Below, in pieces: positions 17,162-21,653 of a stretch of 64,000 bases of DNA; the first letter of the stretch is position 1; the number at the start of each line of letters is the position of its first letter. The DNA comes from Escherichia coli (GTDB lineage Bacteria; Pseudomonadota; Gammaproteobacteria; Enterobacterales; Enterobacteriaceae). A program made the position numbers and the translations under genes. The stretch lies in the NCBI RefSeq assembly GCF_016026235.1, contig NZ_CP065613.1; one strand, given 5' to 3'. Below the pieces are notes generated by a model. The model was not told the DNA's origin. It worked only from the letters and a program-made list of their open reading frames with translations, and searched no databases.

Positions 17162-18587
17162 TAATGCCAGTCAGTTAAGCAACTGACTGGCTCTTTTTCG
17201 GGGCTGTGGGGTATTTCCAGGGCCTCTCCTTTACCACTCTCGGGAAGGCCCTTCCCCTTCTCGTCGGTAATTTCACAAGTTGTCCCATACTTGCAAGATC
17301 GCGCATCAGCTCCGGTATACGTCCCGGTGAAGCGCCCTGCAATGTCATCAGCATTCTCATCACCATTCCGCATGATTCTGAGAAACTCAGTTGATTCGGC
17401 CAGTAACCTTTCAGATGTTCCGCCATTTTAATCATCTGATATCTCACCAGATTATAAGCCAGTAAGACACCCCACAGCTCTTGCTCCACAAGCTCCGGCT
17501 TTTTACTTCTCAGCGTCAGCCTGCTCAGTTGCATCGTCTGTTTTATCTCCCTGTATCCCAGTTCGATTTCCCAGCGATGACTGTACAGATCCGCCATTTC
17601 TCCTCCGGGGAAGCGCATGGCGTCCGTCATCGACGTCAGCAGATGGCAGACTTTTCCTTTGCGCGTCACGGTCAGCAGGCGGGCTGTCACTTCATTTCCC
17701 AGTCCCGGCCACTTTTTTCGTGCCTGCGGGCTGGTTTTCAGCTTCACCAGATGATCGCCTTTACCCAGTTTTCTGAGCTCTTCATATTGCGCTCCCTTTC
17801 TGAGAGGTATCATCCAGTGGCGGTGTTCTCCCGCCAGGCTCCAGGCATTTAACAGTCCCAGTGAGTAATAACCTTTATCCATTAACGTCAGAGTGTTATC
17901 GCCGGTTTGTTCTATAAGTTGCTCAGCAAGCTCATTTTCGCTGTTCTTCATCGTGCCGAAGGCTGCAGCCGTCAGCAGATGGCTGGTCAGTTCCATCTGG
18001 CAGACCATTTTGACCTGCGGGTAGAGCGCCGGGTTCCCGGCATGTGTCTGGCGGGGGAAGGCTGCATCGTTCTCTGGTGTATCCGGTGTGCGCCAGAACA
18101 CACCATCGATGGCCAGCAGGGTCAGGCCGCACCAGTGCGGATGCGGCGTGGCGTTATGCCAGAGCTGCGCTGTTTTCGTGAACACGCGGCGGACAGCCTC
18201 ACTTCCCAGGCGCTGGCGGGCCTGAATAACGGCACTGGGGGCAACGAAGGGGCGATTGCCCGGCAGCATGATGTCCAGGCGATTCACAATCTGGTGAAGA
18301 GGTTCTTTACGCTCAAGCGCCATGCCAACAATACACCAGACCATCATTTCGAGGGGAAGACGGCGCTTGCGTAGCGTTACAGTACCTGATTCGGCAAGGC
18401 AACGAGAGATGAGTTCGGGGTCGAGGTAATCCCCCAGAGAAGTCAGTGGGTTACGCAGAGAATCGTAACGGGATACCAGATCAAGAGCCTGTCCAATGTG
18501 CATAAAAAAATCCGGAAACAAGTGAGCGTTTCCGGATTCTTACACAGCCACTGGATCGGTCAACTGATCCTTAACTGATCGGCATTA
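17162..18587 (-). mobile_element. IS4 insertion sequence (1426 bp)
   Basis: Terminal inverted repeats TAATGCCAGTCAGTTAAG... (17162-) and ...CTTAACTGATCGGCATTA (-18587); 1426-bp length; one long transposase ORF; flanked by a 13-bp direct repeat. Confidence 0.9.
17175..18503 (-). CDS. insG: IS4 transposase (DDE family)
   Basis: ORF 17175-18521; likely start [18 protein letters not shown]... at 18503 (442 aa). Confidence 0.9.
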
Positions 18588-19748: not shown

Positions 19749-20438
19749 CTACTGGATCAGAAAATGACGGGCCAGCAGCGCACTGGTGAAATTTTTCTTC
19801 AAATAAAAGCCGCGCGGCAGCGTCAGAATCCGTTCGCCCCGGGCACCAATGGCTTCGGTAAGCGCTTTCGCATTCGCTGCTTTCGGTCGTATCTGTAAAT
19901 ACTCCCCGTGACGAGCGGTAATCCGCTCAACCTGACCGAGAACAATCATATCCATTAATTCTTCCCAGTCTTCGCGTAGCTGCCGGTCTTCCTCTTCATT
20001 CGGGCTCCACAGCAACGGTGATCCTACGCGACGCTGCGCCAGCGGGATGCTGCGCTCGCCTTCAACCGGTATCCACAGTACGCGTTTGAGTTTGTGGCGC
20101 ACGTGGCTGGTTTCCCAGGTCACCCCGCTATTGCCCGTTAACGGGGCAACACAAACGAATGTTGTTTCCAGCGGACGACCAAGACTATCCACAGGGATAG
20201 TTTTAAGTTCCACGCCCAGAGCAGCAAAATCTTGCTCAGGTTTACTCCCTGCGCTGGCACCTAGCCAGATCTCCAGTAACACGCCAATCCAGCCCTTATC
20301 GCGTTTTAAATTCTCTGGCGTAACCAGCCCGGCAAGTGCCGCCAGTTCTCCCAATGTATAACCAGAAAGTTGCTGTGCTTGCGCTAACAACTGTTCTTCA
20401 GTTTCGGGAGGAGAGAGCAGTGGGCGAGGTTGGGACAT
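19749..20438 (-). CDS. mutH: Methyl-directed mismatch repair endonuclease MutH
   Basis: 229-aa [36 protein letters not shown]... Confidence 0.95.
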
Positions 20439-20616
20439 GTCATGATACCTTGGTTAAAAAACAAACAGCAATTATGTGCCGAATATTCGCAGTGTAACTT
20501 TTTCCACATGCGTTGTTCAATTCTCTGATTTATATTGCTTTTTAGGTTACCGGTAATCGAGTTGCGCAACACTGCAACGGGTTTTCCAAATCTGGTCACT
20601 GAAAATAAACAGGATC

Positions 20617-20763
20617 TTACACCATGTTATCCACAGAAAGCTGGGATAACTGTGAAAAACCTCCACTACTGTTTCCATTTACAGCCTTGACGTGCGACGA
20701 AACTCCAGTTTTTAGTGGTTCAGTGCTTAACTTAGTGGCACATTCTGTGGATAAATACGGCAT
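20617..20763 (-). CDS. Possible small ORF (48 aa) inside the mutH-rppH intergenic region, possibly ygdT
   Basis: Internal Met of ORF 20617-20811 gives MPYLSTECATKLSTEPLKTG...; no convincing Shine-Dalgarno and it overlaps the DnaA-box cluster, so coding status is doubtful. Confidence 0.25.
   Translation of the reverse strand: MPYLSTECATKLSTEPLKTGVSSHVKAVNGNSSGGFSQLSQLSVDNMV
20627..20754. promoter_or_regulatory. DnaA-box cluster consistent with the DARS2 core
   Basis: TTATCCACA (20627-20635), inverted CTGGGATAA = TTATCCCAG (20641-20649, 5-bp spacer) and inverted TGTGGATAA (20746-20754); a further CTATCCACA at 20943-20951. Sits in the 684-bp mutH-rppH divergent intergenic region, where DARS2 has been described. 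Confidence 0.55.
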
Positions 20764-21122
20764 TGGTTGATCTTTCGCCAACCCGTAAATGAGAGGTGTG
20801 ACCTGGGTCACGAATTACTCTTTTTCATTACTCAAATTACATGTAATGCATTGACTAATAATGAATATTTTAAAATGTCTATATCGGGATTATTCAGAAT
20901 GCTCCGGGTTTTCCCGTAGTAATTCCGTAGTTCTTCACAACTCTATCCACAGAAAAGGTGAATAAAAACGGCTATCCACCCCTTCCTCTGTTTATAACTC
21001 TGCACATAACTGTGAGTTATTCAATTGTTATTAGTGTGTAATGCCCTGCAGAGAGTGGTTTACCGTCTTCCTGGAGTATGAAACAATCATTCGTATATAA
21101 AGCTTTATATTGAGGTAGTCCG

Positions 21123-21653
21123 GTGATTGATGACGATGGCTACCGCCCAAACGTAGGTATCGTGATTTGTAATCGCCAGGGGCAGGTAATGTGGGCCCGG
21201 CGATTTGGTCAGCACTCCTGGCAATTTCCGCAAGGCGGAATTAACCCCGGAGAATCCGCAGAGCAGGCGATGTACCGTGAATTGTTTGAAGAAGTAGGAT
21301 TAAGCCGCAAAGACGTTCGAATCCTTGCTTCAACGCGTAACTGGTTGCGCTACAAATTACCGAAACGTTTGGTGCGTTGGGACACGAAGCCGGTTTGTAT
21401 CGGCCAAAAACAAAAATGGTTTCTCTTGCAGCTGGTGAGCGGCGATGCAGAAATCAATATGCAAACCAGCAGTACACCAGAGTTTGACGGCTGGCGATGG
21501 GTAAGTTACTGGTATCCGGTCAGACAGGTGGTGTCATTTAAACGTGATGTCTACCGTAGGGTAATGAAAGAGTTCGCGAGTGTGGTGATGTCACTGCAGG
21601 AAAATACGCCAAAACCACAAAACGCATCTGCTTATCGACGTAAAAGAGGTTAA
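21123..21653 (+). CDS. rppH: RNA pyrophosphohydrolase (Nudix)
   Basis: 176-aa ORF, GTG start, Nudix box [23 protein letters not shown]. Confidence 0.95.

Follow-up and report, generated by a model that had tools for sequence, protein, structure and literature searches.

DARS2 in the mutH-rppH intergenic region of an Escherichia coli chromosome and a conserved core-like module at its DnaA box VI

We analysed a 64-kb stretch of the E. coli chromosome (the window) and identify positions 20534-20988, with near certainty, as DARS2, one of the two chromosomal DnaA-reactivating sequences of E. coli. The DnaA-box cluster between mutH and rppH is a well-studied known element, the annotation of the locus was correct and no discovery is claimed. 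The first-pass annotation had called the locus DARS2-like; it is DARS2 itself, as all 29 published sequences that we tested map here. The gene neighbourhood and extent are as follows.

19749-20438, minus strand: mutH, flanking gene (open reading frames and RefSeq annotation of an identical sequence and of MG1655).
21123-21653, plus strand: rppH (nudH/ygdP), flanking gene (same sources).
20534-20988, no strand: full-length DARS2, exactly 455 bp, set by the published outer primers.

The region between the two divergent genes measures 684 bp (20439-21122), as had been noted from the sequence, and agrees in location with DARS2, which is placed upstream of mutH in the literature (PMC11317965). These are primers, oligonucleotides and fragments, of which 27 were taken from supplementary Table S1 of Kasho et al. 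2014 (PMC4245941) and two, both arms, from Frimodt-Moller et al. 2015 (PMC4585315); each maps to the locus with 0-1 substitutions. The alignment with published DARS2 that had been proposed as a check gave 455 bp between the outer primers, and the published sequences map at 20534-20988, not elsewhere. The limits used are those of later papers by the group of Fujimitsu et al. 2009. DARS2 corresponds to 2969112-2969566 of MG1655 (NC_000913.3), the MG1655 coordinate being 2990100 minus the window coordinate, a conversion derived from the ygdT and rppH positions. DnaA binding in footprinting or ChIP had been named as a further test, and ChIP-seq in K-12 detected three DnaA peaks at the locus, 78x by the core, 199x by box V and 213x by box VI, each about 25-45 bp away from its element (PMC11317965); converted from NC_000913.3, they fall at approximately 20976, 20794 and 20599 of the window.

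The locus has the same flanking genes, 455-bp extent and named sites as K-12 DARS2 (Fujimitsu 2009, Kasho 2014, Miyoshi 2021). Five SNPs (20549, 20833, 20857, 20889, 21109) separate the intergenic region from that of MG1655, none of them inside a named site, with 20889 being the base that adjoins box IV. Identity with K-12 extends to core boxes I-III and boxes IV-VI, to the two IBS consensus 13-mers and to the FBS2-3 21-mer, as well as to the oligonucleotide sequences of FBS1, FBS4-5 and FBS6; low-affinity boxes named V-a, V-b and V-c are also part of the published anatomy. As no named essential element differs, we infer that the copy in the window strain works as in K-12. The region was found in 5424 of 5426 complete E. 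coli genomes.

The catalytic core lies at the rppH-proximal end of DARS2, together with box IV.

20931-20965, minus strand: DARS2 core, TTATTCACC-TTTTC-TGTGGATAG-AGT-TGTGAAGAA, the segment deleted in the published deltaCore mutants.
20957-20965, minus strand: core DnaA box I, TTATTCACC, one mismatch, head-to-head with box II over a 5-bp spacer; 7 of 9 columns invariant in six genera.
20943-20951, plus strand: core DnaA box II, CTATCCACA, one mismatch; 8 of 9 columns invariant in six genera.
20931-20939, plus strand: core DnaA box III, TTCTTCACA, one mismatch, head-to-tail with box II over a 3-bp spacer; 7 of 9 columns invariant.
20890-20898, plus strand: DnaA box IV, TTATTCAGA, one mismatch, abutted by the substitution primers Ksh-30 and Ksh-31.

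The core pattern (box I, 5 bp, inverted box II, 3 bp, box III) is matched exactly, each box having one mismatch, and the inside-out primers MutH-14 and MutH-15 bound it by abutting 20966 and 20930, respectively. The 5-bp I-II spacing is stated in PMC6868365, and the orientations of the core boxes are given in PMC6868365 and PMC11724364; box II is part of the double box gTTCTTCACAactCTATCCACAg beneath a DnaA ChIP-seq peak (PMC11317965). Box IV is not needed on a plasmid and lacks conservation outside E. coli (mean identity to other genera 0.47). The first-pass annotation had the right locus and missed this core. Its span, 20600-20960, stops short of the core end at 20965; the fourth, single-mismatch box that it listed is CTATCCACA at 20943-51, whose role as box II of the true core it did not recognise; and the single-mismatch boxes at 20890-98, 20931-39 and 20957-65 are absent from its list. 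The three boxes that it took for the DARS2 arrangement are box VI, a weak site unnamed in the literature and box V, while the defining head-to-head core is at 20931-20965. The consensus boxes that it listed correspond to regulatory boxes VI and V and lie outside the catalytic core.

The enrichment of DnaA boxes is local. Seven boxes with at most one mismatch to TTATNCACA were detected in the 455-bp DARS2, versus 0.34 expected from the remaining window (Poisson P = 7e-8), and two exact boxes versus 0.01 expected (P = 1e-4). A chance pile-up of DnaA-box-like 9-mers in AT-rich intergenic DNA would be in line with the number of single-mismatch boxes in the whole window, which are not commoner than in shuffles (54 observed, 49 expected). 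Against it stand the local enrichment (the same P = 7e-8), the pair of exact TTATCCACA boxes, which occur only twice in the whole 64 kb, at 20627-35 (plus) and 20746-54 (minus) with 110 bp between them, and the invariance of the boxes in six genera while the spacers between them diverge. Chance accumulation is refuted by these three observations and we give it practically no credence.

The cross-genus comparison covered Escherichia and Enterobacter, Serratia, Yersinia, Pantoea and Photorhabdus, the five non-Escherichia loci having been recovered via the exact core pattern. The five other genera preserve the core, boxes V and VI and part of FBS2-3 almost unchanged, and the intervening spacer sequences diverge.

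The mechanism established for K-12 in the literature (Kasho 2014, PMC4245941; Sugiyama 2019, PMC6868365; Miyoshi 2021, PMC8682772; the 2025 NAR paper, PMC11724364) can be placed on these coordinates. ADP-DnaA would be bound by the three core boxes (20931-20965), the protomers on the opposed boxes I and II would make head-to-head contact via AAA+ domain III (Gln208), and the box III protomer would stabilise them head-to-tail (Leu290), so that ADP would be released, leaving apo-DnaA for rebinding of ATP. The core boxes are weak, and two helpers, IHF and Fis, are therefore needed for activity: IHF would bend the DNA at IBS1-2 (20844-72) and Fis would bind FBS2-3 (20755-75). When ATP-DnaA is high, its oligomers would extend from box V (20746-54) over FBS2-5, displace Fis and switch DARS2 off. 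The K-12 sequence was shown to support IHF- and Fis-dependent ADP release from DnaA and to stimulate initiation (PMC4245941, PMC11724364), in agreement with the regeneration of ATP-DnaA that had been ascribed to the locus, and both activities probably carry over to the window strain.

DARS1, in the bioD-uvrB intergenic region of E. coli, has the same 5-bp/3-bp geometry in its K-12 core (TTATCCACT-ATTCC-TGTGGATAA-CCA-TGTGTATTA). It differs from DARS2 in having an exact box II and higher-affinity boxes, whereas all three core boxes of DARS2 carry one mismatch; DARS1 spans about 100 bp upstream of uvrB and needs neither IHF nor Fis, while DARS2 depends on IBS1-2 and FBS2-3 (PMC11724364).

The search for IHF and Fis patterns that the first-pass annotation had suggested detected two IHF consensus sites 3 bp apart and Fis matches at FBS1 and FBS2-3.

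20844-20856, plus strand: IHF site IBS1, TAATGCATTGACT, one mismatch to TAANNNNTTGATW, in the IBS1-2 region swapped by primers Ksh-16 and Ksh-19.
20860-20872, minus strand: IHF site IBS2, TAAAATATTCATT, one mismatch to TAANNNNTTGATW, 3 bp from IBS1.
20798-20828, no strand: Fis site FBS1 (EMSA oligonucleotide), non-essential; FIS-1U maps with 0 substitutions.
20755-20775, no strand: the crucial 21-mer with FBS2-3, essential for Fis activation of DARS2, abutted by the Delta21 primers MutH-24 and MutH-25.
20556-20586, no strand: Fis site FBS6 (oligonucleotide), non-essential; FIS-4U maps with 0 substitutions; not conserved across genera (mean identity 0.28).

IBS1 and IBS2 are the only matches to TAANNNNTTGATW with at most one mismatch in DARS2 and lie between the core and the Fis sites; their 3-bp separation was reported by Kasho et al. 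2014 (PMC4245941). A PciI site (ACATGT) adjoins IBS1, in agreement with the 2025 NAR paper (PMC11724364), and the spacer base 20857, within the IHF footprint, is A in the window and G in K-12. The deltaRight end (MutH-11) is at 20756, the F23 oligonucleotide maps at 20750-87 with 0 substitutions, and the 21-mer and F23 are both identical to K-12. The Fis consensus is matched with one mismatch at 20758-72, inside the 21-mer, and exactly, as a palindrome, at 20806-20820, inside FBS1. The exact consensus is not enriched in DARS2 (two strand-hits of that one palindrome, 0.67 expected). The essential FBS2-3 would be missed by consensus scanning alone.

The mutH-proximal half of DARS2 contains the two exact boxes, the weak sites near box VI and a conserved block.

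20746-20754, minus strand: DnaA box V, exact TTATCCACA, abutted by Ksh-32 and Ksh-33 and contained in the F45 oligonucleotide; 9 of 9 columns invariant in six genera.
20627-20635, plus strand: DnaA box VI, exact TTATCCACA, abutted by Ksh-34 and Ksh-35; 9 of 9 columns invariant in six genera.
20641-20649, minus strand: weak inverted box, TTATCCCAG, three mismatches, 5 bp from box VI, without a name in the literature; 7 of 9 columns invariant.
20615-20623, plus strand: weak box, TCTTACACC, 3 bp upstream of box VI in the same orientation, conserved, forming a core-like triplet with 20627-49.
20672-20693, no strand: conserved 22-bp block, TTTCCATTTACAGCCTTGACGT, inside DARS2; 16 of 22 columns invariant in six genera.

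The consensus box and the inverted consensus box about 110 bp further on, which had been noted from the letters, are confirmed as exact TTATCCACA at boxes VI and V. An oppositely oriented box 5 bp from the former had been described as near-consensus: spacing and orientation hold, but TTATCCCAG has three mismatches. The ChIP-seq paper saw the weak box at 20615-20623, in a 2-bp register, within a "double DnaA box" (PMC11317965).

The ATP-DnaA oligomers that evict Fis nucleate at box V (negative feedback; PMC8682772), and no published function for box VI was found in our literature search. Overinitiation from a plasmid does not need the half of DARS2 with boxes V and VI (Kasho et al. 2014, PMC4245941), which might suggest that this half is a datA-like sink or titration site for DnaA and not reactivation machinery. 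In vivo, DnaA occupancy at the locus is highest at the exact boxes V and VI (the 199x and 213x peaks, the latter about 30 bp from box VI), comparable with datA and oriC (PMC11317965). However, the role of box V in Fis eviction and negative feedback on DARS2 has already been demonstrated (PMC8682772), there is no evidence of ATP hydrolysis or significant titration at this half, and two or three high-affinity sites are few relative to the chromosome-wide total of DnaA boxes. We consider such a sink unlikely and keep the reading of boxes V and VI as regulatory parts of DARS2.

The triplet around box VI (20615-20649, minus strand: TTATCCCAG-CTTTC-TGTGGATAA-CAT-GGTGTAAGA) repeats the geometry of the true core, in the same orientation, at a distance of 316 bp, and lies beneath the highest (213x) of the three DnaA ChIP-seq peaks. 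It fits the core pattern with three mismatches, for which none of 100 shuffles gave a match, and its boxes are as conserved as those of the true core across the six Enterobacterales genera, while its spacers, including that between box VI and TTATCCCAG, vary in sequence and not in length. The module fails the limit of one mismatch to TTATNCACA, with three at the box I-like site and three at the box III-like site (two with the TTWTNCACA consensus). An independent DARS at this module is rejected because the published deltaCore constructs retain it and show no activity in vivo, nor in assays of DnaA binding and nucleotide exchange (Kasho et al. 2014, PMC4245941). The neighbouring TTTTTCACA at 20651-59 was also considered as a functional box beside box VI and rejected because it is not conserved (mean identity 0.36).

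Further conserved pieces were detected. No assignment for the 22-bp block at 20672-93 was found in the literature, and two box-like elements lie between the core and rppH.

20989-21000, no strand: conserved box-like element TGTTTATAACT, just outside the published DARS2 limit.
21010-21020, no strand: conserved box-like element CTGTGAGTTAT, outside the published DARS2 limits.

As a tentative hypothesis, which we hold to be possible but the less probable outcome, the box VI triplet may be a second, degenerate copy of the DARS core that, with the 22-bp block and these two elements, would form an undescribed working part of DARS2. The module and the unassigned conserved pieces might recruit DnaA as an anchor, provide a second site of head-to-head assembly or take part in the timing of IHF release.

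The elements TGTTTATAACT and CTGTGAGTTAT, being beyond the published limits, could also be cited for a transcriptional function, in which the boxes would mainly be DnaA operators for the divergent mutH and/or rppH-ptsP promoters and not a nucleotide-exchange element. The intergenic region does hold divergent promoters, and DnaA is a transcription factor at other ChIP-seq targets, e.g., nrdA, dnaA and polA (PMC11317965). However, Kasho et al. 2014 (PMC4245941) demonstrated that the plasmid-borne fragment alone raises initiation, that ADP is freed from DnaA in a purified system dependent on the core, IHF and Fis, and that IHF cycling at DARS2 is insensitive to rifampicin. Our promoter and terminator scan found nothing above shuffle expectation, the sole sigma-70-like match (20498-20471, minus strand) being mutH-proximal and outside DARS2, with a count not exceeding that of the shuffles. 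We regard operators as the main function as rather improbable, and transcriptional control could be an additional role of the boxes, not an alternative to DARS2. The Rfam scan of 20300-21300 (E-value up to 1) returned no match and thus gave no sign of a structured RNA.

A small gene is annotated on top of boxes VI and V.

20624-20770, plus strand: annotated open reading frame ygdT (48 aa; RefSeq and K-12 annotation), spanning box VI through box V and FBS2-3; MG1655 2969330-2969476, minus strand.

The first-pass annotation had suggested that an open reading frame at 20617-20811 is possibly ygdT; that frame exists (minus strand, 64 aa, GTG start), but ygdT is the plus-strand frame. Its view that the overlapping frame is probably not coding is supported, as neither frame is open in most of the five other genera. 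If ygdT were a real small protein gene, conservation at 20624-20770 would reflect the protein and the boxes would merely overlap it. Throughout Escherichia and Shigella the frame is unbroken and carries the annotation "protein YgdT" (402 cluster members), and AGGA stands 8 nt upstream of its ATG; the cluster, however, is confined to these two genera. Enterobacter, Serratia, Yersinia and Pantoea, four of the five other genera, lack the ATG, which is replaced; in-frame stops interrupt the frame once in Enterobacter, three times in Serratia and four times in Photorhabdus, and a 1-nt indel shifts it in Yersinia. Substitutions at codon positions 1/2/3 number 10/14/8 versus Enterobacter, hence no third-position excess, and 21/20/16 versus Serratia. 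The conserved "peptide" patches LSTE.WDN, FTALT and SVDK are exactly box VI with its inverted partner, the 22-bp block and box V. Our literature search found no report of ygdT expression, some matches being a misspelt ydgT and one a gene list of a deletion strain. We judge a genuine gene very unlikely; ygdT is most likely an annotation artefact over conserved protein-binding DNA.

DARS2 shares features with the other chromosomal DnaA-binding loci of E. coli. Like DARS2, datA is a chromosomal DnaA-box cluster that includes an IHF site, acts on the nucleotide state of DnaA and stands out as a strong ChIP-seq peak (PMC11724364, PMC11317965). Unlike DARS2, datA promotes hydrolysis of DnaA-bound ATP via head-to-tail ATP-DnaA oligomers, with the opposite effect on initiation, lacks a head-to-head box pair and does not require Fis. 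The DnaA-oligomerisation region of oriC also combines exact and low-affinity boxes with IHF and Fis binding, and loads ATP-DnaA cooperatively from a high-affinity box, as at box V (PMC8682772). DARS2 differs from oriC in its head-to-head boxes, in the absence of a duplex-unwinding element, 13-mers and a GATC cluster (only two GATC sites in the 684-bp intergenic region), and in that it does not initiate replication.

Taken together, the assignment has practical consequences. For those who engineer the mutH-rppH region, the functional core is at 20931-65, near rppH; ygdT, an annotation that thousands of genomes carry over regulatory DNA, is probably no gene; and box VI with its flanking sites, deeply conserved and with no assigned function, is a cheap target for groups that work on DARS2. 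Before each round of E. coli chromosome replication ATP-DnaA is regenerated mainly by DARS2, and loss of this element leads to later initiation and lower fitness, mice included (PMC4585315).

We mapped the published DARS2 reagents onto the window and detected DARS2, the DnaA-reactivating sequence of E. coli, between mutH and rppH. All 29 published sequences tested (27 from Kasho et al. 2014, PMC4245941, whose Supplementary Table S1 gives the primers and oligonucleotides of every DARS2 construct, and two arms from Frimodt-Moller 2015, PMC4585315) mapped to the window with 0-1 substitutions.

Features of the mutH-rppH locus (DARS2 elements from mapped published reagents; FBS, Fis site)
19749-20438, - strand: mutH, flanking ORF
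20439-21122: mutH-rppH spacer, 684 bp
20534-20988: full-length DARS2, exactly 455 bp (primers MutH-2/MutH-4)
20556-86: FBS6 oligonucleotide
20627-35: DnaA box VI
20730-69: FBS4-5 oligonucleotide
20746-54: DnaA box V
20755-20775: crucial 21-mer with FBS2-3
20756-20988: minimal DARS2 (deltaRight)
20798-20828: FBS1 oligonucleotide
20890-98: DnaA box IV
20931-20965: deltaCore segment
21123-21653, + strand: rppH, flanking ORF, with ptsP next

The window is E. coli chromosome, with mutH and rppH, then ptsP, flanking the DnaA-box cluster. The 684-bp spacer is 100% identical to one RefSeq E. coli chromosome and was found (at least 95% identity) in 5424 of the 5426 complete E. coli genomes, with the same genes annotated there. 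The MG1655 coordinate equals 2990100 minus the window coordinate, so DARS2 corresponds to NC_000913.3 2969112-2969566. The differences from MG1655 (20549, 20833, 20857, 20889, 21109) all lie outside the named sites; the one at 20857 falls in the 3-bp spacer between the IHF-binding sites IBS1 and IBS2. With the IHF consensus TAANNNNTTGATW (at most one mismatch) only two sites were detected within DARS2, 20844-56 (+) and 20860-72 (-), 3 bp apart, in agreement with the 3-bp separation of IBS1-2 (Kasho 2014, PMC4245941). The first-pass annotation, which had called this locus DARS2-like, was right, since the published reagents map there. It is a correct rediscovery of DARS2 and therefore already known and of low interest.

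Two further features of the neighborhood were detected. An IS4 transposase gene (17175-18521, - strand ORF, 448 aa) lies between tas and ygdR, about 2 kb from DARS2; IS4 occupies the tas-ygdR junction in 5/5426 complete E. coli genomes (identity 99.3-99.6%, none 100%), so the window may derive from Shigella or an uncommon E. coli lineage. The sole sigma-70-like promoter match of the intergenic region (20498-20471, -; GTTACA, 16 nt, CATAAT) is outside DARS2, with the mutH start about 30 bp downstream of it, and the count is no higher than in shuffles.

On the - strand the core reads TTATTCACC (box I)-TTTTC-TGTGGATAG (box II)-AGT-TGTGAAGAA (box III), with one mismatch in each box, and has the same geometry as K-12 DARS1, TTATCCACT-ATTCC-TGTGGATAA-CCA-TGTGTATTA. 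The 5-bp head-to-head spacing is considered mechanistically important by the Katayama group (PMC11724364, PMC6868365). The DnaA-box cluster itself is real: the 455-bp DARS2 holds 7 boxes with at most one mismatch versus 0.34 expected at the rest-of-window rate (Poisson P = 7e-8), and 2 exact boxes versus 0.01. The 64 kb contain just two exact copies of TTATCCACA, 20627-35 (+) and 20746-54 (-). In the cluster, single-mismatch boxes lie at 20890-98, 20931-39, 20943-51 and 20957-65. The interval first proposed, 20600-20960, is within the right locus, but its end cuts box I, and the arrangement taken as defining was built on the wrong boxes: its consensus boxes are VI and V, not the core, and given the core anatomy its "fourth single-mismatch box" is core box II. 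The inverted box beside the first box was correctly placed 5 bp away, but with three mismatches (TTATCCCAG, 20641-49, -) it is not near-consensus. Boxes VI and V belong to the DARS2 "right half", dispensable for plasmid-driven overinitiation (Kasho 2014, PMC4245941); box V was later found to nucleate ATP-DnaA oligomers, which evict Fis (PMC8682772).

The mechanism described in the K-12 literature is one that we infer for the window copy. ADP-DnaA would bind boxes I-III, and the box I and II protomers would contact head-to-head via Gln208, stabilized by box III via Leu290; ADP would be released and ATP would then rebind DnaA (PMC6868365). Because the core boxes are low-affinity, activity would depend on IHF bound to IBS1-2 and on Fis bound to FBS2-3, with negative supercoiling favoring it (PMC4245941, PMC11724364). 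Abundant ATP-DnaA with DiaA would extend from box V over FBS2-5 and displace Fis, providing negative feedback (PMC8682772). ChIP-seq detected three DnaA peaks at DARS2, 2969124, 2969306 and 2969501, with coverage 78x, 199x and 213x (PMC11317965 Table 1). The table is labelled NC_000913.2, and its coordinates match the locus and its quoted box sequences only if they are NC_000913.3. On that reading the peaks convert to about 20976, 20794 and 20599, and the core, box V and box VI, respectively, would be 25-45 bp away.

The ORF at 20617-20811 (-, 64 aa, GTG start) exists, but it is not ygdT, the possible identity first suggested for it; ygdT is the + strand ORF 20624-20770 (48 aa, identical to YGDT_ECOLI). 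The ygdT frame has lost its ATG in Enterobacter, Serratia, Yersinia and Pantoea. Enterobacter has one in-frame stop, Serratia three and Photorhabdus four, and the Yersinia frame has a 1-nt indel. Substitutions are even across codon positions (for example 10, 14, 8 versus Enterobacter), and the conserved stretches of the "peptide" fall on box VI with its partner, on a 22-bp block and on box V. The - strand ORF has stops in 4/5 other genera. The YgdT protein cluster is limited to Escherichia and Shigella, with names only attached, and no evidence of ygdT expression was found in the literature. These observations support the earlier view that the ORF overlapping the DnaA boxes is probably not coding.

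A scan with the core pattern TTATNCACN-5-TGTGGATAN-3-TGTG (19 specified bases, one genome per species) detected at least 120 loci (L005-L124) versus an estimated roughly 2 expected by chance in 298 Gb. Among the matches listed, 5 occupy the interval between homologues of mutH and/or rppH (Enterobacter, Serratia, Yersinia, Pantoea, Photorhabdus) and 10 lie 330-800 bp upstream of uvrB, the DARS1 position (Enterobacter, Yersinia, Photorhabdus, Vibrio, Shewanella, Parashewanella, Zobellella); in an eleventh, Aliidiomarina, uvrB is 3.3 kb off. In loci containing both ends, the mutH-rppH intergenic region has a conserved length of 683-697 bp. The six-genus alignment showed conservation in blocks.

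Conservation in six genera (core values are partly built in, because the five non-E. coli loci were recovered by exact core match, which biases the core only and leaves all other conservation unaffected)
Box VI: 9/9 invariant columns
Box V: 9/9 invariant columns
Box III: 7/9 invariant columns
Box II: 8/9 invariant columns
Box I: 7/9 invariant columns
Core 5-bp spacer: 5/5 invariant columns
Box IV: mean identity 0.47
FBS1: mean identity 0.44
FBS6: mean identity 0.28
Long spacers 20694-20744, 20899-20930, 20966-20988: mean identity 0.43-0.45

The matches listed also reach beyond Enterobacterales within Beta-/Gammaproteobacteria (Xanthomonadales, Burkholderiales, Nitrosomonadales, Thiomicrorhabdus) and include a few Firmicutes. 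Many Pseudomonas species carry a near-identical core-like triplet, TTATCCACA-caaat-TGTGGATAA-cct-TGTGAACAG (loci L007, L009, L012, L019, L025, L026, L043, L054, L066, L075, L098 and others), without uvrB, mutH or rppH as neighbor; at L026 (6309-6343) it lies upstream of a 152-aa ORF, near an FKBP-type isomerase gene. No description of a Pseudomonas DARS was found in the literature. One Legionella nagasakiensis genome (L057-L063) holds, among the matches listed, 8 copies of the core-like triplet whose flanks resemble one another (TTATCCACA-aaatc-TGTGGATAA-nnn-TGTGA[AG]CAG-accattaaaa), a pattern that suggests a dispersed repeat carrying DnaA boxes.

Other conserved pieces were also detected. The 22-bp block TTTCCATTTACAGCCTTGACGT (20672-20693), between boxes VI and V, has 16/22 columns invariant in six genera and a TTGAC motif; no published assignment was found for it, and the six-genus alignment has no conserved matching -10 element. 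Just beyond the published 455-bp limit, between the core and rppH, TGTTTATAACT (20989-21000) and CTGTGAGTTAT (21010-21020) are near-invariant across genera, and no assignment was found for either; the former includes TTATAAACA, a single-mismatch DnaA box (- strand), and the latter is in E. coli half of the palindrome ATAACTGTGAGTTAT. Two conserved blocks that precede the rppH start by 30-65 bp, TGGTTTACCG (21056-21066) and GAAACAATCA (21080-21095), may belong to the promoter or 5'UTR of rppH. The intergenic region has just two GATC sites, each kept in 5/6 genera and each within a conserved block: 20613 in AGGATCTTACACC, adjoining box VI, and 20769 in TTGATCTTTC, in FBS2-3.

With at most three mismatches, the core pattern matches the window only at the true core and at 20620-20649 (-), and 0/100 shuffles gave any match. 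The latter match, TTATCCCAG-5-TGTGGATAA (box VI)-3-GGTGTAAGA on the - strand, has the geometry and orientation of the core, 316 bp from it. Given a consensus box, the probability that the flanks fit the other 11 specified positions with at most three mismatches is about 0.001. The weak boxes flanking box VI are conserved (inverted box, 7/9 invariant columns), and the 3-bp and 5-bp spacers are constant in length and variable in sequence in six genera; the true core has the same conservation pattern. No function has been assigned to box VI in the DARS2 literature found. The module as an independent DARS was rejected, because deltaCore constructs retain it yet are inactive (Kasho 2014, PMC4245941). 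Judged from sequence, we tentatively propose, with considerable doubt, that the box VI module may be a second, degenerate core-like module inside DARS2 and a candidate working part of it.
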